Notes: generated by a model from the sequence alone, not told the origin. A stretch of DNA of 64,000 nt from Pseudomonadota bacterium (GCA_030538605.1 JAUNTQ010000007.1:10259-74258), one strand, 5' to 3'; numbered from the stretch's first letter, positions 8,400 to 59,413 are shown. A program made the numbers and translations.

Positions 8400-9156
8400 G
8401 CCCAGCCGCACCCACCTGGTGCTCATCCCCAGCTACAACCCCGGCGCCAAGCTCATCGACACGGTGCGCGCCGCATGCGCGCAGTGGGCGCCGGTGTGGG
8501 TGGTGGTCGACGGCAGCACCGACGGCAGCGCAGAGGTGTTGCGCACGCTGGCCGACGAATGCGAACACCTGCGCGTCATCGTCAAGCCCGTCAACCAGGG
8601 CAAGGGCGCAGCCGTGCTCACCGGCATCGAAGCCGCCGCGCGCGAGGGCTTCACGCACGCGCTGACGATGGACTCCGACGGCCAGCACCCGGCAGACCTC
8701 ATCCCCACCTTCATGCAGGCCTCTCAACAGCGGCCCGAGGCCATGGTGCTGGGCGTGCCCCAGTTCGGCCCCGAAGCGCCGCGCATCCGCGTGCTGGGCC
8801 GCAAGATCAGCAACGGTTGGGCCAACCTGGAAACGCTGGGCGTGGGCATTGGCGACTCGCTCTACGGCTTTCGCGTCTACCCCATCGCGCCGCTCGCGCG
8901 CGTCATGCGCGGCCAGCGCTTCATGCGCCGCTTCGACTTCGACCCCGAAGCCGCCGTGCGCCTGGCCTGGGCAGGCGTGCCCCCCCTCAACCTGCCCGCC
9001 CCCGTGCGCTACTTCACGGCAGAAGAAGGCGGCGTGTCGCACTTCAAATACCTGCGCGACAACACCCTGCTGACGTGGATGCACACGCGCCTGTTCGCGG
9101 GCTTTTTGCTGCGGCTGCCGCTGCTGGCGTGGCGGCGTGTTTCAATAAAAAGATAG
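8392..9156 (+). CDS. Family 2 glycosyltransferase
   Basis: LVLIPSYNPGAKL...VVVDGSTDGSAEVL GT2 signature; its last 48 codons are duplicated at 27557-27691. Confidence 0.75.
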   Translation: MPEPSRTHLVLIPSYNPGAKLIDTVRAACAQWAPVWVVVDGSTDGSAEVLRTLADECEHLRVIVKPVNQGKGAAVLTGIEAAAREGFTHALTMDSDGQHPADLIPTFMQASQQRPEAMVLGVPQFGPEAPRIRVLGRKISNGWANLETLGVGIGDSLYGFRVYPIAPLARVMRGQRFMRRFDFDPEAAVRLAWAGVPPLNLPAPVRYFTAEEGGVSHFKYLRDNTLLTWMHTRLFAGFLLRLPLLAWRRVSIKR

Positions 9157-9248
9157 CTGCTTGCGCATGTATTTAATATGTTTAAGATTATTTAATATAT
9201 TAAACCTAATAAATACATTCGCAAGCAGCTACTCTTTTCATTTTTCTG
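9153..9248. repeat. Palindromic AT-loop element copy 1 (probable bidirectional terminator)
   Basis: 21-bp stem AGCTGCTTGCGCATGTATTTA / TAAATACATTCGCAAGCAGCT around a 34-nt AT-rich loop, with A-run upstream and T-run downstream; sits at the GT2 stop codon. Confidence 0.7.
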
Positions 9249-9375
9249 GGTGAGCGGCCATGCTCAGCCCGCCATGCAGTGGCAAGCTTGTCACGGTGTT
9301 TGCCTGCGGCTTTGCGGCCTACCATGAGGCCACTCATCCATGCCCAAGGCATTTCCTCCCCACAGCCATAGAGCC

Positions 9376-10416
9376 ATGCAAACTCTCAGCTACCACCTCA
9401 GCTTCAACACCCCCGCCTTCATGGGCAATGCGCAGCAATCTGCGCAGTGGCGCACACCCCCCATCAAGGCCCTGCTGCGCCAATGGTGGCGGGTGGCGGT
9501 GGCCTGGCAAATCGACTACGACGTAGAAAAGCTGCGCGAGCGCGAGAACGCCTTGTTTGGCGTGGCGGCTGATGGTGACAAGTCGAGCAAGAGCCTTGTG
9601 CGGCTGCGCCTGAGCCATTGGAGTAAAGGCAAGCTCGAAGACTGGCCACGACATGGCACGGTCTTCCACCCGGAAGTCAAGAATAGCCATATCGGCAGCG
9701 ACCTCTACCTCGGCTTTGGGCCGCTGGGGTACACGGGTGCCACCACCATCAAGCACAAGCCCGCCATTCACGCTGGCGACAGTGCCACCCTCCGCCTGTC
9801 CATGCCTGAAGAACATGCCCAGGACATCGCCACCGCCCTGTGGCTGATGCACCAGTACGCCGCCTTGGGCGGGCGCAGCCGCAATGGCTGGGGATCGCTT
9901 TGCCTGACACCTGCCGACGAGCACACACCCCCATTGCAAGGGCGCCCGATAAAGGAATGGACACGCGATTGGAACAAGGCGCTGACGCTGGACTGGCCGC
10001 ACGCCATCGGCCATGATGCGCACGGCCTGCTCGTGTGGAAAACCCGCCCCTTTGCCGACTGGCCACAACTGATACAGGAACTGGCGCGCCTGAAGATCGC
10101 ACTGCGCACGCAACAGTTCAAGTTCACCACCGGCAAGAACGCCCCCAGGCCGGAAGATCGCCACTGGCTCAGCTACCCCGTCACCAACCATTCAGTGGGA
10201 AGCTGGGGCGGCAGCCTCCGCCTGCCCAACAGCCTGCGCTTCAAGGTGCGCGCAGCCCCGGAAAACCCCGAGCAAGTCATCGGCGTGATCTTCCACATGC
10301 CCTGCCTGCCGCCCGACGCCTTCAAGCCCGACACCACAGCAATCACCCGCGTCTGGCAGCAGGTACACCAGCTCCTCGACAAACCCGAGCAAGCGCTCAA
10401 CCGCATTGACGCCTGA
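9376..10416 (+). CDS. cmr1: Cmr1 (type III-B RAMP)
   Basis: RAMP N-terminus MQTLSYHLSFNTPAFMGNA and G-rich loop GGRSRNGWGS; an alternative start at 9340 is possible. Confidence 0.7.
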   Translation: MQTLSYHLSFNTPAFMGNAQQSAQWRTPPIKALLRQWWRVAVAWQIDYDVEKLRERENALFGVAADGDKSSKSLVRLRLSHWSKGKLEDWPRHGTVFHPEVKNSHIGSDLYLGFGPLGYTGATTIKHKPAIHAGDSATLRLSMPEEHAQDIATALWLMHQYAALGGRSRNGWGSLCLTPADEHTPPLQGRPIKEWTRDWNKALTLDWPHAIGHDAHGLLVWKTRPFADWPQLIQELARLKIALRTQQFKFTTGKNAPRPEDRHWLSYPVTNHSVGSWGGSLRLPNSLRFKVRAAPENPEQVIGVIFHMPCLPPDAFKPDTTAITRVWQQVHQLLDKPEQALNRIDA

Positions 10417-10423
10417 GGCCCGC

Positions 10424-13400
10424 ATGACCACCCACCACGACACCCTCTGGCAAACCAAGCTGCACGCCCGCCTGCACGATTCGGCTGAAACAGCACTCTC
10501 GCTGCTGCACGACCCGGCCGGGCACACCGGCCACCATGCGCGCGTAGCGGCCCGCATGGCCTGCCGCGAAGGGCATGCGGCAGACGCCCCCATCGACAAC
10601 GACAACCCCGACGTGCTGCATGCCATCGCCTTCCCCAAAGGCATTCAGCCCGCCACCTGCCAAACCGTGCAGCGTGCCGACCGGTGGGCGGTGGGGGCCG
10701 ACCGGCCACAGTGGCCGCTGGGTGAGGTGCAGACCACTGCAAGCAACAGCGAGAAAAAGACCCTGGGCGTGGCCCCGTGGGCACAAGTGCGCTGGGTCAG
10801 CCAACCCGTGCTGATTCACCCCCTGACCGGTGCGCCATACGACCTGCAGGCGCATGGTGGCCTTTCGCAAGCCGACTTTCAGCACATCAAGGCACGCGCG
10901 CTTTCGCACCTGTCCAGCCTGCGGCTACCCGAGCAAGGCCAAATCGACCTCAAACGCACGCTGCTCGCCCTGTGGCGATTCGGCCCCGAGCTGCGCCAGA
11001 AAGAAGGCAGCGACAAGCTCGGCGAATGCTGGAAGCTGCTGCCCGCCGACACCCGCGTGCCTGACCACGCCATCTGGGACCACCTCGACCTCACCAGCGC
11101 CTTTGCAGGTGCCTTCGCCGCCGACCCCAAGGGCGAAGCCGCCTTGCTCACGCTGTCCATCGGCCCGGTGCAGCCCTTCATCGCTGCCGCCCGCAAGATG
11201 GAAGATCTGTGGGCCGGCTCGCACCTGCTGGCGCGCCTGTCGTGGGAAGCCATGCGCGTCGTTTGCGAGCAACTCGGCCCCGACGCCATCCTGTTCCCGC
11301 GCCTGCGCGGCGTGCCGCAGGTCGATCTGTGGCTGCGCGACCAATGCGGCCTGCCCCGCAAGTGGTTCGACGATTGCGACTGGATGCATGGCAGCACCGA
11401 CAGCAACCCGCTCTTCGCCGCCGCGTTGCCCAACCGCTTCGTCGCCACCGTGCCAGCCACCGGGGCCACGGCACTGGCCGAGAAAGTGCAAGAACAGGTG
11501 CGCCAATGGCTGCAAGACAAGGGCCAGCAGCTTGTCCGCTGCCTGCTGTCGGCTGCGGGCATCGAAGCCAACCCCGGCTTGCCATGCTTCGAGCAGATGC
11601 AAACACAACTGCAAGGCTTTCCTGAAGTGCATTGGGCCGTGGTGCCTTTCAGCCTCATCGATATGGCCGATGCGCAGACACACGCGGGCCTCGACACCAC
11701 GCAGCTTTCCGACGCCATGCGCCCCTTCTTCAACGGCGCGCCGGGCCAAAGCAGCGGCTTTCTCGCCAGCGATGCCTGGAAACTGCTGCAACGCGAGTTG
11801 AAAGCACAGCACGACAGCGGCCAAGCCTTCACGTTTTACAGCCCCAACCCAGGCGTGCTCTACCCCGCCGTCCACGAACTGGCCGAGCGCGCGCTGGCCG
11901 CCGCCAAGGCACTGCGCCCCTTTGGCCAGGCCACGCAAGAAGGCTGGCGCTGCACCCTCAGCGGCGAAGCCGAATGGCTGACCACCGACCGCACGCAACT
12001 CACTCTCTCCAGCGGCCAGCGCACCGACACGCTTTGGACGCGCCTTGCAAGCGCCAAGCCTGCCTGGGCCAGGCACGGCGAGCACCTGGGCGCACTGCCC
12101 GCCCTCAAGCGCCTGTGGCCCACGCTGTTTGCCGAGGAAGTGGCGAACGCAACTGGCACGCCAAGCATCGAGCGATTCGTCGTCTCGACCCACACGATGG
12201 CGCTGGCACACCAGATGAAGCAATGGTTGCAAAGCGACACCCCGTCTGCATCAGGACTGACAGAACTTCGAGATCGCTACAAAAGCAGGATTGATCCGGT
12301 AGCCCTGCCGCGCAAGCTCGTGCTCGACCACCTGGCGCTGAGCGGTCACGCGCTCGCCAGCGCTGCGGCAATGCCCGCCTTGCTCGATCTGGCCGACGAA
12401 GAACTGACCGAGGCCGAGGGCAACACCATCCGCCGTGTCGTGGGCCAAACACTTGCCAGCAGCGACAAGCATCAGACAAGCGACCGGCTGGAAACCTACT
12501 ACGCCCTGCTGCTCATGGACGGCGACCGCATGGGCGCATGGCTCTCAGGCGACAAGGCCATCGCCTACCGCGACAGCTTTCACCCGCAGGTGCAAAAAGG
12601 CTTTGACGAACGAGCCAAACGCAACGCCTCTCTGCACGCCTACGGCCAGCAGGCACGCGCCCTCACCCCGAGCCGACACCTGGCCATCTCCGGCGCGCTC
12701 AACGACTTTTCGCTCACCGTGGTGCGCCATGTGGTCGAGGTGGAGCACCTGGGCCGCCTGATCTACGCCGGTGGCGACGACGTATTCGCCATGTTGCCCG
12801 TGGCCGATCTGCTGCCTGCCATGCAGCGCCTGCGCCACGCCTACAGCGGCCACGACCCGGCACACGAAGGTGGGCGCGACCCGAGCGGCCTCACGCTGCA
12901 AGGCGGTTTTGCCCGCTTGCACGGCAAGCTCATGCGCATGATGGGCACCCAGGCCACGGCCTCTTGCGGCGGCGTCATCGCCCACCACCAGGCACCCCTG
13001 TCTGCCGTGCGCCGCGAACTGGCGGCTGCTGAACAGCGCGCCAAGAACGAAGGTGGCCGCGACGCGTTTTCCATCACCGTTGTCAAGCGCTCGGGCGGCA
13101 CGCTGCGCCTGACCGCCAAGTGGGACAAGGCCCGGGCGCTGCTCGACGATCTGCGGCGCTTTCTGGCGCGTGGCGACGTGTCGCGCCGCGCTGCCTACCA
13201 CACCCTGCAATGGCTCGACGCCAACGAGCTGCCCCAGCCCTTGAATCAGGACATGCTGCAAAGCCTGCTCAGCTACCAGCTTGCACGGCAGGCAGAAGGC
13301 AAAGCCCGGGCAGAGTCTGCCGGGCTGGCCCAGCGGCTGGTCGATTTGTGCATGAAGCAGCCCGGTCTCAAGCAAATCGAATGGCTGCGCAACTTCATCA

Positions 13401-13480
13401 GCGTGGCCGAATTTCTGGCGCGCGAAGTGCGCAGCACGCCCGAGGACAGCGCACACAGCACGCCCGAGGCCAGCCCGTGA
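10424..13480 (+). CDS. cas10: Cas10/Cmr2 large subunit with intact cyclase GGDD motif
   Basis: 1018 aa; motif LIYAGGDDVFAMLPV; N-terminal HD-like dipeptides (LHARLHD). Confidence 0.85.
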   Translation: MTTHHDTLWQTKLHARLHDSAETALSLLHDPAGHTGHHARVAARMACREGHAADAPIDNDNPDVLHAIAFPKGIQPATCQTVQRADRWAVGADRPQWPLGEVQTTASNSEKKTLGVAPWAQVRWVSQPVLIHPLTGAPYDLQAHGGLSQADFQHIKARALSHLSSLRLPEQGQIDLKRTLLALWRFGPELRQKEGSDKLGECWKLLPADTRVPDHAIWDHLDLTSAFAGAFAADPKGEAALLTLSIGPVQPFIAAARKMEDLWAGSHLLARLSWEAMRVVCEQLGPDAILFPRLRGVPQVDLWLRDQCGLPRKWFDDCDWMHGSTDSNPLFAAALPNRFVATVPATGATALAEKVQEQVRQWLQDKGQQLVRCLLSAAGIEANPGLPCFEQMQTQLQGFPEVHWAVVPFSLIDMADAQTHAGLDTTQLSDAMRPFFNGAPGQSSGFLASDAWKLLQRELKAQHDSGQAFTFYSPNPGVLYPAVHELAERALAAAKALRPFGQATQEGWRCTLSGEAEWLTTDRTQLTLSSGQRTDTLWTRLASAKPAWARHGEHLGALPALKRLWPTLFAEEVANATGTPSIERFVVSTHTMALAHQMKQWLQSDTPSASGLTELRDRYKSRIDPVALPRKLVLDHLALSGHALASAAAMPALLDLADEELTEAEGNTIRRVVGQTLASSDKHQTSDRLETYYALLLMDGDRMGAWLSGDKAIAYRDSFHPQVQKGFDERAKRNASLHAYGQQARALTPSRHLAISGALNDFSLTVVRHVVEVEHLGRLIYAGGDDVFAMLPVADLLPAMQRLRHAYSGHDPAHEGGRDPSGLTLQGGFARLHGKLMRMMGTQATASCGGVIAHHQAPLSAVRRELAAAEQRAKNEGGRDAFSITVVKRSGGTLRLTAKWDKARALLDDLRRFLARGDVSRRAAYHTLQWLDANELPQPLNQDMLQSLLSYQLARQAEGKARAESAGLAQRLVDLCMKQPGLKQIEWLRNFISVAEFLAREVRSTPEDSAHSTPEASP

Positions 13481-14973
13481 CCGAAGCCGCCCCCGCCCTG
13501 CTGACACAGCCCGAGGGCAAGACGCTGGAGTTCAAGCGCAACCTGAGTTCCCCGCGCAATGTGCTCAAGACCTTGGTGGCCTTTGCCAACTCGGCCGGTG
13601 GCAAGCTGGTCATCGGGGTGGATGACGCGCGCCGCATCGTCGGCGTGGCTGACCCGCTGGGCGAAGAAGAGCGTCTGTGCAACCTGATCGCCGACGGCAT
13701 CGCCCCGCGCCTGATCCCCAACGTGGAGCTGCTCAGCGTAGGCGATGCCACGCTGCTGGTGGCCGAAGTCTTTCCCAGCAGCGCCCGGCCACACCACCTG
13801 AAGGCGCTGGGGCCTGAACAGGGCGTATACCTGCGCCTTGGCTCCAGCAACCGCCAGGCTGGGCCCGACTGGATTGACGAAACACGCCGCGCGGCGGCCG
13901 GCCTGGTGTTCGACGAGCAGCCCATGCCCGAGCTGAGCGTGGACGATCTGGATCTGGACGCTGTGGCCCGCCTGCTCGGCCCAGACCGTGCGCGCGACAC
14001 TGCTGGCCTGCAAACCCTCAAGCTGCTGCGCATGGAGCAAGGGCGGCAGGTGCCTACGCAAGGTGCCGTGCTGCTCTTCGGTCGAAATCGCGCCCAACAC
14101 TTTCCAGACGCCTGGGTACAGTGCGGGCGCTTTCGCGGAAGCGAAAAGGTGGACATCTTCGACCAGCAGGACATCCACACATCCTTGCCCGACGCCGTGG
14201 CAGCCATCGAGCTGTTTCTGAAAAAGCACGCCCACAAAAGCGCGCGCTTCGGTGCCATGCAGCGTGAAGACGTGTGGAGCATTCCACTGACCTTGCTGCG
14301 CGAGGGCATCGTCAACGCCCTCGTGCATGCCGACTATGCGCAGCGCGGCACCCCCATTCGCGTTGCGTTTTTCGACGACCGCATCGACATCGAAAGCCCC
14401 GGCTTTCTGCTGCCCGGCATGACGGTGGCCGACATGCAAGGCGGCGTCTCGCGCATTCGCAACCCGGTCATCGCCCGCGTGTTCCGAGAGCTGCGCCTGA
14501 GCGAGCAATGGGGCAGCGGCATGAAGCGCATTTTTTCCGAGGCCGCCGCGTGGGGGCTGCCCCCGCCCAACGTGGCGGAATTCGCCACCGGCGTTCGCCT
14601 GCGCGTTTTTCTGGCCCCGGCCCACACCGAAGCCGCGCAAGCCCCGGCACCCACGCCCCCCCCCGACACTCCGCCGTCAAACACGCCGCAGCCAGAGTCA
14701 CAGCTAGAGTCACAGCTAGAGTCACGTCTGGCCGCCAAGGTGTTCCTGCTCCTGCACGCGAACGAATCGGGCAAAGCCGCCTTGGCGCGCGGCTTGGGGC
14801 ACCGCAGCGTATCGGGCGAGCTGCACAAGCAAGTGCAGCGTTTGCTCGCGCACGGCCTGATTGCCATGACCTTGCCAGACAAACCCCAAAGCCGCCTGCA
14901 ACGCTACCGCCTCACACAGCAAGGTCAGCGCCTGCTGGCCGCACTGCGCACCAAGGAAAACCCCGCCCCATGA
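13477..14973 (+). CDS. AlbA_2 (Schlafen-like) + HATPase_c_4 domain protein (COG2865-like) embedded in the cmr operon
   Basis: N-terminal KTLEFKRNL...VAFANSAGGKLVIGVDD (AlbA_2-like), C-terminal ...NALVHADY...FDDRIDIESPG (HATPase_c_4-like); GTG overlaps the cas10 stop and the stop overlaps the cmr3 ATG. Confidence 0.65.
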   Translation: MTEAAPALLTQPEGKTLEFKRNLSSPRNVLKTLVAFANSAGGKLVIGVDDARRIVGVADPLGEEERLCNLIADGIAPRLIPNVELLSVGDATLLVAEVFPSSARPHHLKALGPEQGVYLRLGSSNRQAGPDWIDETRRAAAGLVFDEQPMPELSVDDLDLDAVARLLGPDRARDTAGLQTLKLLRMEQGRQVPTQGAVLLFGRNRAQHFPDAWVQCGRFRGSEKVDIFDQQDIHTSLPDAVAAIELFLKKHAHKSARFGAMQREDVWSIPLTLLREGIVNALVHADYAQRGTPIRVAFFDDRIDIESPGFLLPGMTVADMQGGVSRIRNPVIARVFRELRLSEQWGSGMKRIFSEAAAWGLPPPNVAEFATGVRLRVFLAPAHTEAAQAPAPTPPPDTPPSNTPQPESQLESQLESRLAAKVFLLLHANESGKAALARGLGHRSVSGELHKQVQRLLAHGLIAMTLPDKPQSRLQRYRLTQQGQRLLAALRTKENPAP

Positions 14974-16094
14974 CCACCCTCACCTCCCTTTTCATTGAAC
15001 CGCTTGACGTGCTCTTCTTGCGCGGCAACCAGCTTTTTGGCGAACCGGGCAGCTACGGCGAGGCGCTCATGCCGCCCTGGCCCTCGGTGGCCGCAGGTGC
15101 CCTTCGCTCGCGCATCCTGGCCGACGACGGCGCAGACCTGCACGCCTTCGCGCAAGGCCGTGTCCCACACCCCGAACTGGGCACACCCGAGCAGCCGGGC
15201 AGCTTCTTGCTGCACGGCTTTCAACTGGCACGCCGCGCAGGCCAAAAAATGGAGCTGCTCATGCCTGTGCCCGCCGATCTGTTCGTCACCGAAAACGACG
15301 ACGGCACCCCTGCCGCCACCGCCCTGCACCCCACAGCGCCGCACAAGGCCATCGCCACATCCAGCCCGCTGCCACTGGTGCCGCTGCTGGCCCAGGCCGC
15401 GCGCGCCAAGCCCGCCAGCGGCTGGTGGCTGCGCGAAAGCGGCTGGCGCAAGCACCTGCACGCCCAGCCCATCGCCAGCAACGACCTGGTCAAGACCAGC
15501 GAGCTGTGGGCTTATGACGAGCGCATCGGCATCGGGCTGGACGAAACCCAGCGCAGCGCATCCGACGGCAAGCTGTTCAGCTCCCGCGCCGTCTGTCTGC
15601 ACCCAGGCGTCGGCTTTGCCGTGGCCGCCAGCGGTGCCCGCCTGCCCGCCAGCGGTGCGCTTCGCCTCGGCGGTGATGGCCGCGCCGCTCATCTTCACCA
15701 TGCCGCCATCCGCTGGCCCGAACCCGACCATGCCGCCATCGCACAAGCCCGGCGCTGCCGCATCGTGCTCACCAGCCCCGGCATCTTTTCCCACGGCTGG
15801 CAACTGCCCGGCATGGCAGCAGACGGCCAGCTCAGCTTGCCCGGCATGCGCGCCCGCGTGGTGGCCGCCGCCGTCAGCCGCGCCGAGACCATCTCCGGCT
15901 GGAACCTTGCCACCTGGCAACCCAAGCCCGCGCAAAAAGCCGCAGGCAGCGGCAGCGTCTACTGGCTGGACGACCTCGACACCACGCCCGATGCCCTTCA
16001 CAAGCTTGCCGCGCACGGCCTGTGGAGCCAGCCCTGCGAAGATGCGCCGCGCCGCGCAGAAGGCTTCAACCGCTTCAGCTTTGCCGTCTATTGA
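14970..16094 (+). CDS. cmr3: Cmr3
   Basis: Classic N-terminus LFIEPLDVLFLRGNQLFGEPGSYGEALMPPWPSVAAGALRSRIL. Confidence 0.75.
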   Translation: MTTLTSLFIEPLDVLFLRGNQLFGEPGSYGEALMPPWPSVAAGALRSRILADDGADLHAFAQGRVPHPELGTPEQPGSFLLHGFQLARRAGQKMELLMPVPADLFVTENDDGTPAATALHPTAPHKAIATSSPLPLVPLLAQAARAKPASGWWLRESGWRKHLHAQPIASNDLVKTSELWAYDERIGIGLDETQRSASDGKLFSSRAVCLHPGVGFAVAASGARLPASGALRLGGDGRAAHLHHAAIRWPEPDHAAIAQARRCRIVLTSPGIFSHGWQLPGMAADGQLSLPGMRARVVAAAVSRAETISGWNLATWQPKPAQKAAGSGSVYWLDDLDTTPDALHKLAAHGLWSQPCEDAPRRAEGFNRFSFAVY

Positions 16095-17393
<1,299 letters not shown>

Positions 17394-17396
17394 GCC

Positions 17397-18623
17397 ATGC
17401 CCATCTCCGCCACCCCCGCCTATCTAGGCCAGAACTTCAGCACCGCCTCACCCGGGCTGCGCTTTGGCATGTACCTGCCTTTGTGGGACACCGACCTCTG
17501 CTCCATCGTCACGGACAGCAAAACCAAGGCCTTGCAGCAAGCCTGCAAACTCACCGCCAACGACAAGGCCGTCATAAACGCGCTGGTTGATCGCCAAAGC
17601 CACCTCGCCAGCGCCTGCCCGCACCTGCTCACACTCGATGCCACCGCCGTCGCCCCCTTCACCACCGGCCTGGGCAACGAGCACCCGCTTGAAAACGGCT
17701 TTGCCTTCCTCAACCCCTACGGCCTGCCCTACCTGCCCGGCAGCGGCGTCAAGGGCGTGCTGCGTCAGGCAGCGCGCGAGTTGGCCAAAGGCGATTGGGG
17801 CGACACCCACGGCTGGACGGACGAGAAAATTTACCGGCTCCAACGCACGGGCGAGAAAGACATCGCGCTCACCCCACTCGACGTGCTATTCGGCCTTGAA
17901 AACACCGACGGCAGCACCGAACACGTGCGCGGCGCACTCAGCTTCTGGGACGCCCTGCCAAAAATCCACGGCGAAGCGCTGGCCGTGGACATCATGACCC
18001 CGCACCAAAGCCACTATCACCAGCAGAAAAAAGATCGAGAGAGCGGCTCCAGCACCACCCCGCACGACAGCGGCAAGCCCAGCCCCATCAGCTTTCTCAC
18101 GCTCCCGCCGGGCACTGAATTTGCCTTTCACGTGCAGTGCGATCGGGCGCACTTGAAGCACCTCGCGCCCGAACTGGCCGACAACTGCCATTGGCAAAAG
18201 CTCGTCATGGCCGCCTTCATGCATGCCTTTGAATGGCTTGGCTTCGGTGCCAAAACCGCCGTGGGCTACGGCGCGATGAAGATCGATGAGCGCGCAACCA
18301 ACCGCCGCGCACAAGCCCGCCAGGAAGCTGACAAGACTGCACGCATGGCCAGCCTCTCACCCGCACAGCGGCAAATCCAAGAGTTCGAGGACGAGCTGCG
18401 CGCCAAGCACGAGCAATACCCGGCCTACAAGGAAGGCCCCAACGCCGCCTTCCACAACAAAGCCCGCCAGCTCGCCAAAGCCGCACACGAAGCCACCGAC
18501 TGGAGCGCCGACGAAAAGCGCGCCGCCGCCCTAGCCATTGAAACCTGGCTGCCCAAGCTGGTGCGCGTGGAAATGAAGGAAGAGCGCAAGAAACTCGGCC
18601 TCGCCGCGCTCAAAGGGCTATGA
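17397..18623 (+). CDS. cmr6: Cmr6 (RAMP) with a roughly 120-aa charged C-terminal extension
   Basis: GLPYLPGSGVKGVLRQAARE and FGLENTDGS RAMP motifs; extra coiled-coil-like C-terminus. Confidence 0.75.
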   Translation: MPISATPAYLGQNFSTASPGLRFGMYLPLWDTDLCSIVTDSKTKALQQACKLTANDKAVINALVDRQSHLASACPHLLTLDATAVAPFTTGLGNEHPLENGFAFLNPYGLPYLPGSGVKGVLRQAARELAKGDWGDTHGWTDEKIYRLQRTGEKDIALTPLDVLFGLENTDGSTEHVRGALSFWDALPKIHGEALAVDIMTPHQSHYHQQKKDRESGSSTTPHDSGKPSPISFLTLPPGTEFAFHVQCDRAHLKHLAPELADNCHWQKLVMAAFMHAFEWLGFGAKTAVGYGAMKIDERATNRRAQARQEADKTARMASLSPAQRQIQEFEDELRAKHEQYPAYKEGPNAAFHNKARQLAKAAHEATDWSADEKRAAALAIETWLPKLVRVEMKEERKKLGLAALKGL

Positions 18624-19555
18624 CCGAGCACCTCGGCACCCTGCCCATCGCCCGCCTGCGCCTCACCGTGCGTGCAGACGCGCCGCTGCACCTGCCACCC
18701 TACGCTGGCTCCATGCTGCGCGGTGCCTTCGGCCACGCCCTGCTGGCGCTGGCCCCTCTGCCGCACCACGGCGGCCAGCCCTGTGCGCTGCACGCCAGTT
18801 GCCCCTACTGCCAGGTATTCGCCAGCCCGCCACTGCCCGCCCACAGCCTGCAAAAGTTCAGCCAGATGCCCGCGCCCTACGTCATCGAGCCGCCCGAAGG
18901 CGGCGCGCAGCGCTTGTCCGCAGGCCAAGCCTTCGACTTCGGCCTGGTACTCATCGGCAAGGCACTCACCCACATCGGTGCCATCGAACGCGCCTGGCAA
19001 CGCGCCCTGCGCATCGGCCTGGGCCACGAACACGCACCATGCACCCTTGTGAAAATTCATGATGAAAATGGCGAAAAACCCTTTGAAATCATGCGCGAGA
19101 AGCTATCAAAATCAATAATCGATCTACCCCCCGCCCCCACGCTCACCCACCGCGCCACGCTGCACTTTCACACCCCCCTGCGCCTGCAAATACAAGGCAA
19201 GCCCGCCCGTGCCCACCAACTCACCGCGCGCCACCTGCTGATCACCCTCGCACGCCGCTGGCAACTGCTGCAAGACGTGCATCTCGGTGCCGCCGCACCG
19301 CAGCAAGACTTTGCCGCCCTCAGCACCCAGGCCAGCGCCATCACGCTGCAAGCGCATGGCCTGCGCTGGTACGACTGGGGCCGCTACTCACAGCGCCAGC
19401 AGCGCGAAATGCAACTCGGCGGCCTGCTCGGCAGCCTGCACCTGCACGGCGAACTGTCACCCTTCGCCCATCTGCTGCACCTGGGCCAATGGCTGCACCT
19501 TGGCAAGAACACCAGCTTTGGCCTGGGCGGCTATCGGCTGCAACTCGAAGGGTGA
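18620..19555 (+). CDS. cas6: Cas6 pre-crRNA endoribonuclease
   Basis: C-terminal glycine-rich loop GKNTSFGLGGY; ATGA coupling to cmr6. Confidence 0.75.
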   Translation: MTEHLGTLPIARLRLTVRADAPLHLPPYAGSMLRGAFGHALLALAPLPHHGGQPCALHASCPYCQVFASPPLPAHSLQKFSQMPAPYVIEPPEGGAQRLSAGQAFDFGLVLIGKALTHIGAIERAWQRALRIGLGHEHAPCTLVKIHDENGEKPFEIMREKLSKSIIDLPPAPTLTHRATLHFHTPLRLQIQGKPARAHQLTARHLLITLARRWQLLQDVHLGAAAPQQDFAALSTQASAITLQAHGLRWYDWGRYSQRQQREMQLGGLLGSLHLHGELSPFAHLLHLGQWLHLGKNTSFGLGGYRLQLEG

Positions 19556-19703
19556 CGCGCGCACACACCCAACGACCTGCCGAATGCAAACCGATCCAGC
19601 GATCATCCCCGCAAGCTTGCCACCCCGCTGAAAGCGTGTCCGCGCCCGGAAAATCGCGGCCCAATAGCCTGGCTGCCCTCTCCCGCTCGCACACACACAC
19701 GCC

Positions 19704-21175
<1,472 letters not shown>

Positions 21176-21195
21176 CCCGTCCACAACAAGCATCC

Positions 21196-22416: not shown

Positions 22417-22454
22417 AGCGCCGACGCCTGAAAAACGGCCAAATCGTGCAAGCC

Positions 22455-22494
22455 AAAACGCTTCCTGACAAGCTTGTCAGGAAGCGTTTTTTTG
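22455..22494 (+). terminator. Rho-independent terminator
   Basis: Perfect palindrome AACGCTTCCTGACAAGCTTGTCAGGAAGCGTT followed by T7. Confidence 0.8.
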
Positions 22495-22893
22495 TTCATT
22501 TCCTTCACAATTCACTTATGGCTGCAAAACAGTGACAAGCAGTCGGCGTCCAAAAATCTCATCCAACACACCCGTCTACCTCACAAGCTTGCCACCCTCT
22601 TGAAACCAATATTCAGCACACAAAAACAGCACCCAAGCTTGTCAGAGATAAATTCGATCCGCCCTCTGACATCATCGCACTCTGCTCAAATTACTCCCTA
22701 AACAGAGTCAGGCAAATTCGACATTTCTCAACACCCAAAAAACTCACGCCACCAACCTCATTTCAAAGAAAATCAACATGACATCCCTCCTGAAGACACT
22801 CACCATCATCATCACCATCAAAATCCCTCTTCCGTGGGAGTGACATCCCCGCCCTTCACCCTCTCACAACCCAACCCATTCAAGGGAAAACCC

Positions 22894-23088: not shown

Positions 23089-23109
23089 CCTTTCCGCGAC
23101 CCGACCACC

Positions 23110-23388: not shown

Positions 23389-23421
23389 ACAACCCGCCAC
23401 CACCGCCAAGGATCCCCTTAC

Positions 23422-27556: not shown

Positions 27557-27691
27557 GAAGAAGGCGGCGTGTCGCACTTCAAATACCTGCGCGACAACAC
27601 CCTGCTGACGTGGATGCACACGCGCCTGTTCGCGGGCTTTTTGCTGCGGCTGCCGCTGCTGGCGTGGCGGCGTGTTTCAATAAAAAGATAG
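27557..27691 (+). pseudogene. Duplicated 3' end (last 45 codons) of the GT2 glycosyltransferase gene; right-hand direct repeat of the island
   Basis: 147 bp 100% identical to 9022-9168, including the stop codon and the first arm of the palindromic element. Confidence 0.85.
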
Positions 27692-27776
27692 CTGCTTGCG
27701 CATACTTTTAAATGATTTCAGACATAAAATCATTTTAAAATGCTTAATATCATACGCAAGCAGCTTCTTTTTTTCT
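27688..27776. repeat. Palindromic AT-loop element copy 2
   Basis: AGCTGCTTGCGCATAC...CATACGCAAGCAGCT arms with a nested AT-rich palindrome, flanked by A-run and T-run. Confidence 0.65.
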
Positions 27777-29055
27777 AGTACCTGGTGCCGCACTGGGGCA
27801 GCCAGCGGCGAATGAGCGGGGTGGTGATGACGGTGCTGACGATGGCCATGATGACGAGCATGGTGAACAGGTTCTGGCTGATGACGCCCAGGTCGTAGCC
27901 GACGTTGATGACGATCAGCTCCATCAGTGCGCGGGTGTTCATCATGATGCCCAGCACCTTGGCTTCTGCCTTGGGCATGCCCACGTGGCGCGCGGCCAGG
28001 TAGCTGCCGAAGAATTTGCCCGCGCAGGCCAGCCCCACCACCAGCGCGCACCAGCCCCACAGCTCGGGCGAGTCCAGTCCGCCGATGTGGGTGCGCAAGC
28101 CGGTGTAGGTGAAGAAGATGGGCAAAAAGAACACCGTCACGAAAGCGCCCATGCGCTCTTTCCACGCCGCGATCAGCCGGTGCTCGTCGTGCAGCAGCAC
28201 CCCCAGCATGAAGCCGCCGAAGATGGCGAAGATGCCCAGCTTGTAAGTCGTCATCGCGGCGACGAACACCGCCGCCAGCAGCACGCCCAGCAGCGTGTGC
28301 GGCAGCGCATCGACCCCCGCGCCGGGCGCGCCCTGCCCCCAGCGCACCAGCCGCTTCAGCAAAGGCCGCACGCCCCACCACGACACCGCCGCAAACAACC
28401 CCACCGCCGCCACGTTCAGCGCAAACACCCCCGCCTGAAACTGCGCCACCGCCAGCGCCGTGACCAGCGCCAGCAGCAGCCAGCCCACCACGTCGTTGAT
28501 GGCGGCGGCGCTGATGGCGATCACGCCCAGCGGGCGCTGCGTCAGGTCGAACTCCATCATGATGCGCCCCAGGATGGGCAGCGCCGTGATGGAAAACGCC
28601 GTGCCCACGAACAGCGCGGTGGCCAGCGGGCTGTGGCCCTCGCCGCCCAGAAACGGTGCCACCCACCAGCCCAGGCCGCAGCCCAGCGCAAACGGCAGCA
28701 GCAGCCCTGCGCTGGCCACCCACAGCACGGCGCGGCGGTTGCGCTTTTCGCTCAGGTGGCCAAAGTCGAACTCCAGCCCGATCTGGAACATGAGCAGGAT
28801 CAGCCCGATCTGCGACAGCACCTGCATCGGCTCGCCCGGCACCGAGTGAAACACGTAGTCGAACGCCCCCGGCGCCAGCAGCCCGAACAGCGACGGCCCG
28901 AGCAGGATGCCCACGATGATCTCGCCCACCGCCGCCGACTGCCCCCAGCGCACCGCCAGCACGCTGCCCAGCCGCCCGGCCAGCACCACCACGGTGAGTT
29001 GCAGCAGGGTGAAGTAGAGAACCAGTTCGGCCTGGTGAACGGCGGTGTCTTGCAT
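27775..29055 (-). CDS. Cation:proton antiporter (CPA family, Na+/H+ exchanger-like)
   Basis: 426-aa polytopic membrane protein, GEIIVGILLGPSLFGLL N-terminal motif. Confidence 0.8.
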   Translation of the reverse strand: MQDTAVHQAELVLYFTLLQLTVVVLAGRLGSVLAVRWGQSAAVGEIIVGILLGPSLFGLLAPGAFDYVFHSVPGEPMQVLSQIGLILLMFQIGLEFDFGHLSEKRNRRAVLWVASAGLLLPFALGCGLGWWVAPFLGGEGHSPLATALFVGTAFSITALPILGRIMMEFDLTQRPLGVIAISAAAINDVVGWLLLALVTALAVAQFQAGVFALNVAAVGLFAAVSWWGVRPLLKRLVRWGQGAPGAGVDALPHTLLGVLLAAVFVAAMTTYKLGIFAIFGGFMLGVLLHDEHRLIAAWKERMGAFVTVFFLPIFFTYTGLRTHIGGLDSPELWGWCALVVGLACAGKFFGSYLAARHVGMPKAEAKVLGIMMNTRALMELIVINVGYDLGVISQNLFTMLVIMAIVSTVITTPLIRRWLPQCGTRY

Positions 29056-33454: not shown

Positions 33455-34353
33455 GCAGACACCGCCTGCGCGCGGGCGGCGGGCGTGACCTGGCACGCGG
33501 CAGCCAGCGTCACGCTGCGCAGGCCGCGCGCGCGCAGGGCGGCGATCAGGCCGGGCAGCACGGCCAGCACCACCGGCTCGCCCGCAGGCGTGCGCGCGGC
33601 ATGGCCGTCGTGCAGCAGCAGGATGTCGCCTGCGGCCAGCCCGCGCGTCAGGCGCGCGAGCACGGTGGCGGCGTGGCTGGTGCGGGTGTCGTAGGCGCGG
33701 CGCGTCCAGCTGGCCAGGTGCAGGCCGTGGCGCACCAGCACGGGCTGCAAGAACGGGTTGCGCAGCCCTGCCACGGCGCGGAAGAAGCGCGGCGCACGGC
33801 CAGCCACCTCGGCCAGCGTGCGCTGCGCCGCTGCCACCTCGCGCGCCATGCGGCGCGGGCCATGGAGCGAAAACGCATGCGGATGCGTTTGCGTGTGGTT
33901 CTCCAGCGCGTGGCCGCGCCGCACGATCTCGCGCGCCAGCGCCGGGTGGCGCTGCACCTGCTCGCCAATGCAAAAGAAGGTGGCACGCATGCCCGCCGCA
34001 TCCAGCATGTCGAGCACGTGCGGCGTGGTGGCGGGGTCGGGCCCGTCGTCAAACGTCAGCGCCACCTCGCCCCGCGCGGCAGCCGCCGCAGGCAGGCGCA
34101 CGAGATTGGGGCCGAGCCACCGGCAGCGCGGCAGCAGGCCCGCCCCGGTGATGGCCGCATGGTTGGCCACCACCAGCGCCAGCCACCCGGCCCATGCGCC
34201 AGGCACCAGCAGCACGCCCAGCAGCGCCCCGACATGCAGCGCGGCGCTGCCCCACAAGAAGGCGCTGGGCATGTAACGGGGCGCGGGTGGCGAATCCAGA
34301 AAGGCCTGGGGCAAAGACATGCGGGCGATTATCGGCGAGCGTTGTCTGGTCAT
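33451..34353 (-). CDS. Polysaccharide deacetylase (NodB homology) with an N-terminal TM segment
   Basis: TFDDGPDP, HTQTHP and LLHDG motifs; start at 34353 or 34320. Confidence 0.7.
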   Translation of the reverse strand: MTRQRSPIIARMSLPQAFLDSPPAPRYMPSAFLWGSAALHVGALLGVLLVPGAWAGWLALVVANHAAITGAGLLPRCRWLGPNLVRLPAAAAARGEVALTFDDGPDPATTPHVLDMLDAAGMRATFFCIGEQVQRHPALAREIVRRGHALENHTQTHPHAFSLHGPRRMAREVAAAQRTLAEVAGRAPRFFRAVAGLRNPFLQPVLVRHGLHLASWTRRAYDTRTSHAATVLARLTRGLAAGDILLLHDGHAARTPAGEPVVLAVLPGLIAALRARGLRSVTLAAACQVTPAARAQAVSA

Positions 34354-34463
34354 ATTTTTCAAACCATATTCGAAACATTCCCTTGTGTATAAAGCGCAAA
34401 CAGCTATCTTTATCAAAGTATTGCCGGGCCGCCTGTCACGCCGCGCCGCTATGCTGCCGGCCC

Positions 34464-47031: not shown

Positions 47032-47268
47032 GAGCTACTCCTTATCGAGACAGCCGAAACCGAACGGCAGGAAGCGAAGGACGCGAAGGACGCGAAAAAC
47101 AGCCATTGAAAGAAACACAAAAATATAGCTATCAGCGCTTTATGAATAAGCGCAGACGGGCAATTTCATGAAGATCATCCTGAATTCTTTCGCGTCTCTC
47201 GCGTCTGTCGCGTCTTTCGCGAACCTTTTTCGTTCTTCGCGTCCGGCTGTTTGGCTTTCTGACAAGCA

Positions 47269-49058: not shown

Positions 49059-49069
49059 GGGTGCCTTTT

Positions 49070-49167
49070 GTTCACCGCAGAGGCGCAGAGAACGCCGAGC
49101 TTCGCAGAGCAAACACCCGCTTCAATTCTCTGCGGAACTCTGCGTTCTCTGCGTCTCTGCGGTGAAG
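49070..49167. repeat. REP-like inverted repeat family B, copy 2
   Basis: TTCACCGCAGAGGCGCAGAGAACGC ... GCGTTCTCTGCGTCTCTGCGGTGAAG. Confidence 0.65.
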
Positions 49168-49176
49168 AATGAGCGT

Positions 49177-50082
<906 letters not shown>

Positions 50083-50086
50083 TTTT

Positions 50087-50172
50087 ATAGCTGCTTGCGC
50101 ACGTTATAAAACAATTTCAGATGGTTTTATACCTATAACTGTTTTATATCGTGCGCAAGTAGCTACTTTTTT
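50087..50172. repeat. Palindromic AT-loop element copy 3
   Basis: ATAGCTGCTTGCGCACG ... CGTGCGCAAGTAGCT with an AT-rich loop, T-run downstream; between coxM stop and coxD start. Confidence 0.65.
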
Positions 50173-50962
50173 ATTGCAAAGCTTTCGCCACCGCCCGCTG
50201 CGCCATCACGCAAACCAGGTGCGCACGGTAGTCGGCGCTGCCGTGCAGGTCGCCGTTGATCTCGCTCGCGTCGGTGGTGATGCCGGCGATGGCTTCGGGC
50301 GTGAAGCTCTTGGCCAGCGCTTCTTCCATCGCCGTGTGCCGGAACACGCCGTTGCCACCGCCCGTGACGGCCACGCGCACGCCGTCTGCCGTCTGCGCGA
50401 CGAACACGCCGATCAGCGCGAACAGCGAGGCGGGCTGGCGGAACTTGATGTAGGCGGCGCGCTGCGGTTTGGCAAAGCGCACGGCGGTGATGAGTTCGCC
50501 CTCTTGCAGCGCGGTGGCGAACATGCCTTGAAAGTAATCGTCGGCGGCGATCTCGCGCTGGTCGGTGATGACCGTTGCGCGCAGCGCCAGCACGGCGGCG
50601 GGGTAATCGGCGGCGGGGTCGTTGTTGGCCAGCGAGCCGCCGATGGTGCCCATGGCGCGCACCTGCTTGTCGCCGATGCCATCGGCCAACGCAGCGAGTG
50701 CGGGGATCAGCGCCTTGACGTCGGCGTTGCTCGCCACATCGGCATGCCGCGTCATGGCGCCGATGACGACGGCGTCGCCCTCCTGGCGCACACCGGCCAG
50801 TTCTTTCACGCCGCCCAAATCGACCAGTTGCTCAGGGCTTGCCAGGCGCAGCTTCATCGAGGCGAGCAGGGTTTGCCCACCGGCCAGCAGCTGGCCGCCC
50901 GCCTGCACGAGCTTGAGGGCGTCGGCCTGCGATGCGGGGCGTTCAAAGGTGAATGCGTACAT
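50171..50962 (-). CDS. coxM: CO-dehydrogenase-family medium (FAD-binding) subunit
   Basis: 263 aa, FAD-binding PCMH-type domain pattern. Confidence 0.8.
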   Translation of the reverse strand: MYAFTFERPASQADALKLVQAGGQLLAGGQTLLASMKLRLASPEQLVDLGGVKELAGVRQEGDAVVIGAMTRHADVASNADVKALIPALAALADGIGDKQVRAMGTIGGSLANNDPAADYPAAVLALRATVITDQREIAADDYFQGMFATALQEGELITAVRFAKPQRAAYIKFRQPASLFALIGVFVAQTADGVRVAVTGGGNGVFRHTAMEEALAKSFTPEAIAGITTDASEINGDLHGSADYRAHLVCVMAQRAVAKALQ

Positions 50963-56941: not shown

Positions 56942-56961
56942 ACGCCACGCCCGCACACATG

Positions 56962-56997
56962 AAAAAGCGGCCTGGATAGTCCAGGCCGCTTTTTTCG
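56962..56997. terminator. Bidirectional rho-independent terminator
   Basis: AAAAAGCGGCCTGGATAGTCCAGGCCGCTTTTTT between convergent genes. Confidence 0.85.
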
Positions 56998-57684: not shown

Positions 57685-57786
57685 CCCCTTCCCCCCGCTG
57701 GGGGGAGGCTGGGATGGGGGCTGACCACATTCGTACATCCACCGTGGTTGGCCCCCACCCCAGCCCTCCCCCAGCGGGGGAGGGAG
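57685..57786. repeat. GC-rich ~35-bp imperfect inverted repeat around a 28-nt loop
   Basis: CCCTTCCCCCCGCTGGGGGGAGGCTGGGATGGGGGC ... GGCCCCCACCCCAGCCCTCCCCCAGCGGGGGAGGGAG, ending 5 nt before the stop of the FMN reductase gene. Confidence 0.55.
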
Positions 57787-57791
57787 CAAGA

Positions 57792-58337
57792 TCAGCCGGT
57801 CTGCTTGACCCAGGCAATGAAGGCATCGACGAACTTCTGCACGAAATCCTTGCTGTTCGGGCCGATGGAGCCGCTCTCCACCAGCCCCTCCTTCCAGTGG
57901 ATGAACATCTCGTGGCCGCTCAGCGTGGGCATGGCCAGGTAGGCCAGCACGTTGCGCAGGTGCTGCTGCGCCAGCGCCGCGCCAATCGGGCCGACCGACA
58001 CGCCGCACACCGCCGCCGGCTTGCCCGCCCACACACTCTTGCCCCAGGGGCGCGAGGCGTGGTCGATGGCGTTCTTCAGCGCGCCGGGGAAAGAGCGGTT
58101 GTACTCGGGCGTGACGAACAGCACGCCATCGGCGGCCTGGATGGCCTCGCGCAGGCGCGTAACGGCGGGCGTGGGGCTGCCGTCGTCGTCCTGGTTATAG
58201 AGCGGCAAGTCGTCGATGCGGATGAACTCGGCTTTCACGTCGGCCGGAAACTGCCTGACCAGCGCCTCGGCAAACTGGCGGTTGAACGATTCCTTGCGGA
58301 TGCTGCCGACGACGATGGCGATGGTGGTTTGGCTCAT
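57792..58337 (-). CDS. NADPH-dependent FMN reductase (ChrR/SsuE-like)
   Basis: IAIVVGSIRKESFNRQ...FVTPEYNRSFPGALKNAID flavodoxin-like motifs; GGAGAG RBS. Confidence 0.8.
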   Translation of the reverse strand: MSQTTIAIVVGSIRKESFNRQFAEALVRQFPADVKAEFIRIDDLPLYNQDDDGSPTPAVTRLREAIQAADGVLFVTPEYNRSFPGALKNAIDHASRPWGKSVWAGKPAAVCGVSVGPIGAALAQQHLRNVLAYLAMPTLSGHEMFIHWKEGLVESGSIGPNSKDFVQKFVDAFIAWVKQTG

Positions 58338-58393
58338 GGGCGACTCTCCTGGTTGACGGGGTTGAAAGGGAAAAAGCAAAGGCCAAGCTTGCC

Positions 58394-59329
58394 ATGCGGA
58401 CAAGCCAACAGGGCGCGCACCAGATAATCCGGCCCATGCCCCCTGCCCTGCCGCCCGATGATGCCCCACCCGATGCCGCGCCCGATGCCGCACCCAAGCG
58501 CCAGCGCCACATCCAGTCCATCGAAGTGGGCATGCGCGTGCTGGACGCGCTCGCCGCGCAGGCGCGCCCGCTGCCGCTGAAGGCACTGGCCCAGCTGGCC
58601 GACATGCCGCCGGGCAAGGCGCACCCGTATCTGGTCAGCTTCATGAACGTGGGGCTGGTGCGGCAAAACGCGCTCACCGGCCTGTACGAGCTGGGGCCCG
58701 GCGCACTGCGGCTGGGTCTGGCCGCCTTGCAGCGGCTCGACCCGCTCACCGAAGCCAGCGCCGACGCCGCCCAGCTGGCCGTGCAGTCGGGCCTCTCGGT
58801 GGCACTGGTGGTGCGCGGCAACCTGGGCCCCACCGTGGTGCGGCTGGACGAGCCGCACTACCCCCTGCACATGAACCTGCGCGTGGGCACGGTGATGTCG
58901 ATGCTGGGCACGGTGACGGGCCGGGTCTTCGCCGCGCACCTGCCAGGCAAGATGGTGCGCACCCTGATTGCCGACGAGCACGACCGCGTGGTGGGCGCAC
59001 GCGCTGGCGCGCACCCGGCCAGCGCACCGGGCCTGGGCGCGGGCACCGACGTGGCGCGGCTGGACAGCGAGGAAATGCAGCAAACCCTGGCCCACATCCG
59101 CGCCACCGGCATGGGCCGCGGCGTGGGCATGCCGCAGCCGGGCGTGAACACCTTGTGCGCCCCCATCTTCGGTGCCGACGGCCAGATGATGCTGGCCATG
59201 ACCCTGGTCGGCCCGCAAGGCGTGTTCGGCGCCGAGCCCGACAGCGCCGTGGCCCGCCTGCTGCGCACGCATGCGCAGGCGGTGTCGGCGCGTCTGGGAC
59301 ATACGCCTCAGGAGATGAAAAAAGAATAG
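58394..59329 (+). CDS. IclR-family transcriptional regulator
   Basis: N-terminal wHTH (SIEVGMRVLDALA) plus C-terminal effector domain; the start may be at 58436. Confidence 0.75.
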   Translation: MRTSQQGAHQIIRPMPPALPPDDAPPDAAPDAAPKRQRHIQSIEVGMRVLDALAAQARPLPLKALAQLADMPPGKAHPYLVSFMNVGLVRQNALTGLYELGPGALRLGLAALQRLDPLTEASADAAQLAVQSGLSVALVVRGNLGPTVVRLDEPHYPLHMNLRVGTVMSMLGTVTGRVFAAHLPGKMVRTLIADEHDRVVGARAGAHPASAPGLGAGTDVARLDSEEMQQTLAHIRATGMGRGVGMPQPGVNTLCAPIFGADGQMMLAMTLVGPQGVFGAEPDSAVARLLRTHAQAVSARLGHTPQEMKKE

Positions 59330-59413
59330 CTTCTTGCGTACGTTATTAGACATTTTCATATGCTTTTGTATATGAATTTGTTTTATATCATACGCAAACA
59401 GCTCACTTTTTTT
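59326..59413. repeat. Palindromic AT-loop element copy 4
   Basis: ATAGCTTCTTGCGTACG ... CATACGCAAACAGCT with an AT-rich loop, A-run upstream, T7 downstream; at the stop codon of the IclR gene. Confidence 0.6.

Follow-up and report, generated by a model that had tools for sequence, protein, structure and literature searches.

In a 64,000-nucleotide stretch of DNA from a Pseudomonadota bacterium (GCA_030538605.1, JAUNTQ010000007.1:10259-74258; the whole stretch is called the window, and positions are counted from its first letter), four elements, termed Family A, are true copies of a 78-bp palindromic intergenic repeat that occurs across several genera of the Comamonadaceae. The window itself is Ottowia-like Comamonadaceae DNA, with proteins approximately 85% identical to Ottowia proteins. 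Family A is rather likely to be a dispersed non-coding palindromic repeat of the Comamonadaceae, belonging to the class of repetitive extragenic palindromes (REPs), REP doublets forming hairpins (REPINs), and miniature inverted-repeat transposable elements (MITEs), with a two-way terminator-like layout. The four long copies in the window are as follows:

Copy 1 (c1): core 9154-9231 (78 bp), 9143..9242 with the A-run and T-run flanks; left edge of a CRISPR-Cas (short palindromic repeats, clustered and regularly interspaced, with associated genes) island
Copy 2 (c2): core 27689-27766, 27678..27777 with flanks; right edge of the CRISPR-Cas island
Copy 3 (c3): core 50088-50165, 50077..50176 with flanks; between two minus-strand genes
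Copy 4 (c4): core 59327-59404, 59316..59415 with flanks; starts at the stop codon of an IclR gene

Each of the four copies measures exactly 78 bp, with an AT-rich interior of 50 nt enclosed by inverted ends of 14 nt, (R)TAGCTGCTTGCGCA. The inverted ends span 14–15 nt, RTAGCTGCTTGCGCA, and read TAGCTGCTTGCGCA on one side and TGCGCAAGCAGCTA on the other. A search for TAGCTGCTTGCGCA with up to 3 mismatches recovered both arms of all four copies, and the both-arm pattern matched these four loci only in the window and none of 100 shuffles, confirming the four full copies that an earlier note, made from the sequence alone, had placed here. A repeat finder also grouped the four copies as one family (D3) and called c1 an inverted repeat with 42-nt arms (I7). 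The arms are approximately 90% conserved and the interiors approximately 50%; between copies, 21–30 of the 50 interior positions are identical, except for c3 and c4, which share 37 (74%). The interior GC content is 12–26% in the window copies, in a host genome of 67% GC. Hence, the conserved arms with diverged interiors described in the earlier note do mark a genuine repeat family, although its loop lengths of 35–60 nt give way to an interior of exactly 50 nt in every copy. Nor are these interiors loops: they are self-complementary and continue the palindrome, each copy being symmetric about its own centre; in strict register, 25–32 of its 39 mirrored positions can pair. The A-run on the left and T-run on the right that had been described exist in c1, c2, and c4, but c3 is T-rich on both sides. 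Altogether, the 64 kb contain four long copies and approximately four single modules.

A stop codon lies 0–9 nt from an arm in all four window copies, and within approximately 50 nt in the other copies where one was located. In c1, the TAG at 9154-9156 ends a GT2 glycosyltransferase gene (8392-9156) in an aryl-polyene-type cluster. Copy c2 is preceded by an in-frame remnant of the last ~50 GT2 codons, and 9 nt downstream of it, a convergent Na+/H+ exchanger gene (27775-29055, minus strand) has its stop codon. Copy c3 is situated between co-directional minus-strand genes of a CO-dehydrogenase-like cluster; 5 nt separate its right arm from the TAA (50171) that ends the coxM-like FAD subunit gene, and another 5 nt separate its left arm from the AAA ATPase gene start (50082). 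In c4, the TAG at 59327-59329 ends the IclR regulator gene (58394-59329). The TAG inside ATAGCT is thus a stop codon for three copies, as the earlier note had read it: for GT2 in c1, for the in-frame GT2 3' remnant in c2, and for IclR in c4.

The neighbouring proteins carry the imprint of the element. The GT2 C-terminus reads ...WRRVSIKR*, compared with ...WRRLTQRG* and many other tails in relatives. The IclR protein has 7 extra C-terminal residues (...GHTPQEMKKE*, compared with ...GSR* in a relative); in relatives, the gene is 7 codons shorter at this end and has a different gene downstream. The N-terminus of the AAA protein is MKKDTPLSS, and that of the relatives is MPPT. The lysine-rich protein tails are the translated A-tract flanks. 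As a marker for relatives that carry the element, the ...VSIKR tail was found in the source protein alone, and the LpxA tails were uninformative.

In the nearest available relatives, Family A is missing at every orthologous locus compared (GT2/NaH, coxM/AAA, IclR, and lpxA/lpxB). The glycosyltransferase and exchanger genes of Ottowia caeni converge and overlap with no element, and in another relative, the gap between them is 65 bp of unrelated sequence. The coxM/AAA junction of relatives with 85–87% protein identity is occupied by a different palindromic family of the GACGCGAAGG type. In relatives, lpxB starts 2 nt past the lpxA stop codon with no element; at the filled site (L007 1-225, reverse complement, downstream of lpxA), a gap of several hundred bases between lpxA and lpxB holds Family A together with another repeat (GGATGGGTAGAGCCGCAGGCGAAACCCATC...). 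The filled site contains several different repeats, so exact insertion boundaries cannot be defined from the comparison of the filled and empty sites. Since the orthologous sites are empty and the neighbouring gene ends are rewritten, the Family A copies are best read as lineage-specific insertions. In the source lineage, copies have been gained at gene boundaries, overwriting the last or first codons and supplying TAG stop codons.

The same 78-bp element exists in other Comamonadaceae. A scan of a genome collection with a degenerate two-arm pattern returned at least three loci, one of which (L002) is a single-ended module and not a full copy; among the matches listed, the full element was present in a Comamonas metagenome-assembled genome and in Simplicispira metamorpha. 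A metagenome scan with a fixed-gap pattern returned eight loci, of which five are true and correspond to three distinct sites; the other three (L004, L006, and L009) are GC-rich coding sequence and were judged to be chance matches. The two-arm pattern had no match in viral contigs. A covariance model built from a 10-sequence alignment added a diverged long copy in a Diaphorobacter replicon, which spans exactly 100 model positions with no net insertions or deletions. The flanking genes differ at each locus: panD in Comamonas, acyl-CoA dehydrogenase and AMP-ligase genes in Simplicispira, and, at further loci, a position downstream of lpxA and one between M3 peptidase and glutaredoxin genes in Diaphorobacter. 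The mobile-type reading of the earlier note is therefore upheld as regards a dispersed, inserted element, for which the orthologous sites of the nearest relatives are empty and unrelated loci in other genera are filled.

The copies are predicted to form long hairpins, as a folding check suggested in the earlier note bears out: the RNA folds of the four copies have energies of −29.6 to −39.4 kcal/mol, with z = −5.5 to −9.9 against shuffles. No Rfam family matched at the gathering thresholds, and at E ≤ 5 only microRNA-precursor models appeared, that is, a generic hairpin shape; a tRNA/tmRNA scan found nothing. The alignment is ungapped, with 100 columns and 10 sequences, a small sample in which three rows (L003, L005, and L010) are strain-level orthologues of one locus, approximately 99% identical throughout, and say nothing on selection. 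Its arms are invariant, its outer flanks are A-rich and T-rich columns, and an inner symmetric TTCA/TGAA pair is located between the arms, in which T40, T41, and A43 opposite T58 and A61 are invariant and A60 is present in 9 of 10 rows. Under strict mirror pairing, 73% of the alignment cells are matched, compared with 33–46% when the partner is slid by 1–3 columns. Furthermore, 18 pairs are altered on both sides, and the covariation score was reached by only 4 of 500 shuffles. Because the sample is small and includes three strain-variant rows, this covariation evidence lends support to a maintained palindrome but does not prove it. All nine long copies, among them the one found by the model that permits insertions and deletions, have a 50-nt spacer. 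Given strongly conserved ends, near-random interiors, and no change of length, the ends would be recognised by a protein, most plausibly an enzyme that copies the element.

Two other functional readings of the copies were tried and dropped. A consensus scan for sigma-70 and sigma-54 promoters gave only one weak inward-facing match, in c4. Copy c1 resembles a dif/Xer site (TGCGCAT...TATGTTTAA), a likeness that is absent from the other copies.

The flanks of the palindrome are arranged like those of a terminator. Across nine independent long copies and both strands, 16 of the 18 element sides carry five or more T among the 10 nt past the stem, where approximately two would be expected from the base composition, so that the two-way terminator geometry proposed in the earlier note is substantiated. 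The two exceptions are the left side of c3, which lacks a sense-direction U-tract, and one side of L011; each faces a start codon within a few nucleotides. In Family A, a stop codon is followed by a stem with a GC-rich base, and the U-tract comes directly after the stem. The architecture appears to be that of an intrinsic terminator, two-way in most copies, from which we infer termination. When transcribed, the element would fold into a hairpin of ~36–44 bp with a U-tract on one or both strands, which would act as a factor-independent terminator and a protector of the 3' end, working two ways at convergent genes. When the next gene is close by and co-directional, the sense U-tract is sometimes missing (c3 and L011), and the hairpin would permit read-through.

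A canonical two-way intrinsic terminator, GAAAAAGCGGCCTGGATAGTCCAGGCCGCTTTTTT, with an A-run, hairpin, and T-run, is located nearby at 56961-56995 and was called by the simple terminator scan; it stands in contrast to the far longer Family A hairpins. Its presence, together with the terminator-like geometry of Family A, would suit the idea that the copies are ordinary, immobile host terminators that became alike by convergence or local duplication. This idea is very improbable: the same 14-mer ends, inner motif, and exact length recur at unrelated loci in four genera, the elements are missing from orthologous sites, and convergence on at least 30 specific positions is not credible.

Besides the long copies, shorter units with the same ends exist, in which the spacer is 9–11 nt. 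Plasmid BLAST identified one on Polaromonas pPNAP01, consisting of ATAGCTGCTTGCGCA, 9 nt, TGCGCAGGCGGCTAT, and TTTT between two bacteriophage exclusion (BREX) genes, with a second short variant 1.4 kb away. Short units of a similar kind are found in Diaphorobacter, on plasmids there as well, in Delftia pKV29, and in Comamonadaceae bacterium OS-4, and the short forms at L031 20007 and L032 4007 are tag-plus-hairpin units. In 351 kb of non-redundant Comamonadaceae sequence, the pattern TAGCT-N4-GCG[CT] occurs 29 times, compared with 7.05 ± 2.1 in shuffles, almost always with an A/T run just before it and outside genes. Many of these sites are single-ended, with TAGCT-N4-GCGC followed by a small hairpin or AAGGGC and then TTCAT..ATGAA. 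The window contains the following modules of this kind:

3122..3172, minus strand: single-ended module or remnant, with the arm AAGCGCAAACAGCTAT at 3157-3172, 6 nt upstream of the LolA-like gene start (3179)
34345..34407, minus strand: single-ended module or remnant, with the arm AAGCGCAAACAGCTAT at 34392-34407, between the deacetylase and chrA genes
47126..47172, plus strand: related module ('B-type'), TAGCTATCAGCGC, hairpin, TTCATGAA, nested at the centre of the other-family palindrome at 47040-47260
19040..19110, minus strand: possible B-type module, TAGCTTCTCGCGC...TTTTCATCATGAA, in frame within a cas6-like open reading frame (ORF) at 18620-19555

The first two correspond to the half-sites that the earlier note had assigned to promoters. 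The identical 16-mers AAGCGCAAACAGCTAT are indeed present, but the second was placed approximately 8 nt off, and its true position is 34392-34407. Nothing was found in support of these half-sites as promoter operators. They are missing from the orthologous intergenic regions of the Ottowia relatives, which are much shorter (at 3122..3172, the spacer is ~59 bp, and the Ottowia equivalent is ~20 bp). The segment at 34345-34407 aligns to the right half of the full element in L008 and L011, with extra bases inserted, and is accordingly a putative remnant. The half-sites look like single-ended relatives or remnants of the Family A module, or truncated members of it. The region at 47040-47260, which had been called related, mostly belongs to the different family with GACGCGAAGG arms, and only the TAGCT...GCGC module at its centre (47126) is akin to Family A.

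Two side observations concern these sites. The segment at 34194-35711 holds chrA, a chromate transporter gene, beside the deacetylase gene, at a site that bears a repeat remnant and where relatives have an ABC transporter gene. The segment at 19040-19110 is AT-rich, resembles the single-ended TAGCT...GCGC...TTCATCATGAA module, and is translated (...VKIHDENGEKPFEIMREKLSKSIID...); it may be a repeat inserted in coding sequence.

The occurrence of arms both as inverted pairs and as singles, with the pairs giving terminator-like hairpins, recalls the DNA uptake sequences (DUS) that pair as terminators in Neisseria. That the arms are uptake-signal-like or short signature words of this type is nevertheless barely credible, since their density is ~1 per 6–9 kb and not ~1 per kb, almost none lie in coding sequence, and a fixed 50-nt spacer with an inner motif would be unexpected.

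The exact length, the invariance of the arms and inner motif amid a near-random remainder, and the single arms that adjoin gene starts could also be produced by double-stranded DNA sites for a host protein, such as a nucleoid-associated protein, a global regulator, or a partition or condensation factor, with the hairpin as a by-product of symmetry. The geometry would be appropriate: inverted 14-mers are 63–64 bp apart, or approximately six helical turns, around an inner TTCA/TGAA pair and a bendable AT-rich spacer. However, pairing in the interior is kept by two-sided changes that a protein site would not need, the flanking A/T tracts are a transcript-level feature, the 9–11-nt spacer of the short forms breaks the fixed spacing, and the elements are not conserved at the orthologous promoters of relatives. 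Such protein sites, an idea that the earlier note had also raised, are an unlikely explanation of the family.

Several observations weigh against the preferred reading of Family A as a dispersed, terminator-like repeat. Neither the window nor 360 kb of the loci examined yielded a mobilising gene or a RayT-like ORF, and a search for homologues of the REP-associated tyrosine transposase (RAYT) on plasmids gave 32 matches, none from Comamonadaceae. There is no direct-repeat target duplication; the flanks are inverted A/T runs, and what is shared, at 11 of 16 ends, is no more than a TA dinucleotide that itself belongs to the palindrome. Few copies were recovered from the collections searched. The strict two-arm pattern recovered only the five true loci (three distinct sites) in the whole metagenome collection; with the covariance model, 265 kb of DNA from relatives gave no additional long copy, and another 96 kb, from plasmid loci, gave the single diverged one. 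The window copies are old, with interiors ~50% alike (74% only for c3 and c4), and bear no trace of recent transposition. In addition, the stems of 36–44 bp are far longer than those of canonical terminators, and the simple terminator scan gave no call on them. The exact length and invariant inner motif fit a double-stranded DNA protein-binding architecture as well.

Copies c1 and c2 enclose an 18.5-kb type III-B CRISPR-Cas island (9232-27556) within the aryl-polyene-type cluster, and the Ottowia relatives lack the island. Its genes encode Cmr2/Cas10, several RAMP proteins, Cas6, an NE0113-type Csx protein, and Cas1, and its CRISPR array (24824-26866) contains 30 repeats with a period of ~69 nt. 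No integrase or recombinase is present in the island. The earlier note had one copy forming the island boundary; an element does stand at the edge, but both c1 and c2 bound the island. The junctions are marked by a perfect direct repeat (D4):

9022..9168, plus strand: left copy of the 147-bp perfect direct repeat, containing the GT2 3' end, the A-run, and the left arm
27557..27703, plus strand: right copy of the 147-bp perfect direct repeat, in which identity ends 1 nt past the arm

The right copy is preceded by another ~30 nt or so of GT2-like sequence that has diverged, and the frame of the GT2 remnant is open. Such an arrangement could most simply result from a donor segment, circular or linear, that carried the 3' end of a related glycosyltransferase gene, its own Family A element, and the island, and that recombined with the resident copy inside the common stretch of GT2 3' end and arm. 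In this two-step account, the interiors of c1 and c2 would differ because they derive from different lineages, and the Family A element would be a passive part of the homology. Judged from the junctions, the island most likely arrived by recombination within the common GT2 3' end and arm. Homologous recombination explains the boundary at least as well as activity of the element.

Bracketing of an island that is absent in relatives, a junction identity ending 1 nt past the border of arm and interior, and the attC-like logic of conserved ends, a variable centre, and a maintained hairpin would also be expected of att- or attC-like sites at which a site-specific recombinase exchanges cassettes such as the CRISPR-Cas island. 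Yet the junction repeat is 147 bp long and includes coding sequence, as for homologous recombination and not for a short core; the island lacks an integrase or recombinase; synteny with relatives extends across the segment from c3 to c4, which is no cassette; and the arms are without attC core motifs, with all other copies solitary. Family A as a set of recombination sites is quite improbable.

A broader proposal extends the preferred reading of a dispersed repeat. The RTAGCT...GCGC modules, as 78-bp doublets, short hairpins, and single ends, might be repeats of an unrecognised mobilisation system of the Comamonadaceae, in which a domesticated HUH/Y1-type or other enzyme would copy an ATAG-tagged portable two-way terminator, and shared ends would let defence islands such as the type III-B CRISPR-Cas island swap at gene boundaries. 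This proposal is speculative, and its probability is low.

Two ORFs of the island are worth recording. The ORF at 13120-14973, in the cmr row, has Schlafen/AlbA_2, HATPase_c_4, and Fic-like C-terminal domains and may be a type III accessory effector or regulator. A 160-aa ORF at 26949-27431, with no Pfam match, is situated between the CRISPR array and the glycosyltransferase remnant.

Other palindromes exist in the same DNA. A second palindromic family is GC-rich, with GACGCGAAGG / CTCTGCG-type units in inverted arms; it fills the coxM/AAA spacer of relatives where the source genome has Family A, and metagenome contigs tend to end in it. Its positions are as follows:

In the window: 38365-38393; 47040-47100 with 47190-47260; 49068-49169
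In other loci: L017 10795-10910; contig ends of L028, L029, and L030; L014 7830-8000

The GC-rich palindromes at 57692-57780 (CCCCCGCTGGGGGGAGGCTGGGATGGGGGC...) and 59757-59790 (CTCCCTCTCCCTGAAGGGAGAGGG...) look like additional REP-like families.

Operon expression, mRNA stability, and genome rearrangement are all influenced by palindromic repeats of small size, which also break metagenome assemblies. Within this context, Family A is unusual in forming an AT-rich hairpin in a 67% GC genome, in keeping an exact length with a nearly free interior, and in rewriting the starts and stops of its neighbours. A covariance model of Family A would improve the annotation of terminators and gene ends in a bacterial family that is abundant in wastewater and soil. 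Meanwhile, its position at both edges of a CRISPR-Cas island provides a concrete case for whether such repeats help defence islands to move.

Among known systems, REPINs offer a close comparison. They have conserved inverted ends and a less conserved spacer, with length and hairpin capacity as the critical properties; compensatory changes are common, and singlets are defunct remnants (Bertels & Rainey 2011, PMC3116915). The doublet anatomy of inverted ends, a characteristic spacer, and a hairpin is found in Family A, along with a hairpin spacer of kept length, compensatory changes, extragenic location, and single units that look decayed. Its ends begin with RTAG, recalling the GTAG tag of REPs, although the tag is mostly ATAG, with GTAG in c1-right and c3-right. 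In contrast to REPINs, a single long-form arm of Family A is not self-complementary and forms no GC-rich hairpin of its own; the spacer is strongly AT-rich, with A/T tracts as part of the unit; and no RAYT was found in the DNA examined or on Comamonadaceae plasmids. Because the arm forms no hairpin, the spacer is AT-rich, and no RAYT was found, REPIN membership cannot be claimed for Family A. An early survey reported that Thauera had acquired a Pseudomonas-like RAYT for which the other betaproteobacteria offered no counterpart (PMC2817692).

As for MITEs with terminal inverted repeats (TIRs), Family A has such repeats of 14–15 nt; the lack of a target-site duplication in direct repeat led to the rejection of a classical MITE. 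No full-length parent element with Family A ends was found in the loci examined; gapped patterns, for their part, cannot span a transposase gene. The Correia/NEMIS elements of Neisseria and similar TIR-MITEs are small, palindromic intergenic elements of uniform length with TIRs that start with TA, and they can alter the ends of genes and serve as terminators or RNA-processing hairpins, in all of which Family A is alike. Compared with Correia/NEMIS, Family A has no sequence similarity, no demonstrable direct-repeat target duplication, and far more internal divergence; unlike for MITEs of this type, we know of no parent insertion sequence.

Integron attC sites were rejected, the ends TAGCTGCTTGCGCA / TGCGCAAGCAGCTA lacking the R''/R' cores (RYYYAAC ... 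GTTRRRY) and the copies being solitary, with no arrays. The Betaproteobacterial repeat element (BRE) measures ~90 bp, has a GC content of 64–79% (~69%), and is often arranged in tandem arrays (Hot et al. 2011, PMC3110155). Both BRE, which also occurs in Bordetella and is the one named repeat of betaproteobacteria known to extend to the Comamonadaceae, and Family A are intergenic repeats of ~75–100 bp in Comamonadaceae that sometimes overlap gene ends. However, BRE is GC-rich and tandem, and Family A is neither, being AT-rich (interior GC 12–26%), solitary, and palindromic, which rules out their identity.

Rho-independent bidirectional terminators share with Family A an A-tract, a GC-based stem, and a T-tract right after stop codons. 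The compact form of intrinsic terminators, with a stem of ~5–14 bp and a loop of 3–8 nt, is seen in the plasmid short forms and not in the long forms of Family A, in which the stem of 36–44 bp has an AT-rich upper part and the sequence is common to unrelated loci and genera. The words of the Family A sequence occur in no searchable paper, and the main text of the searchable REP, REPIN, and MITE surveys makes no mention of the Comamonadaceae. Family A is apparently an undescribed sequence family within the familiar class of small palindromic intergenic repeats.

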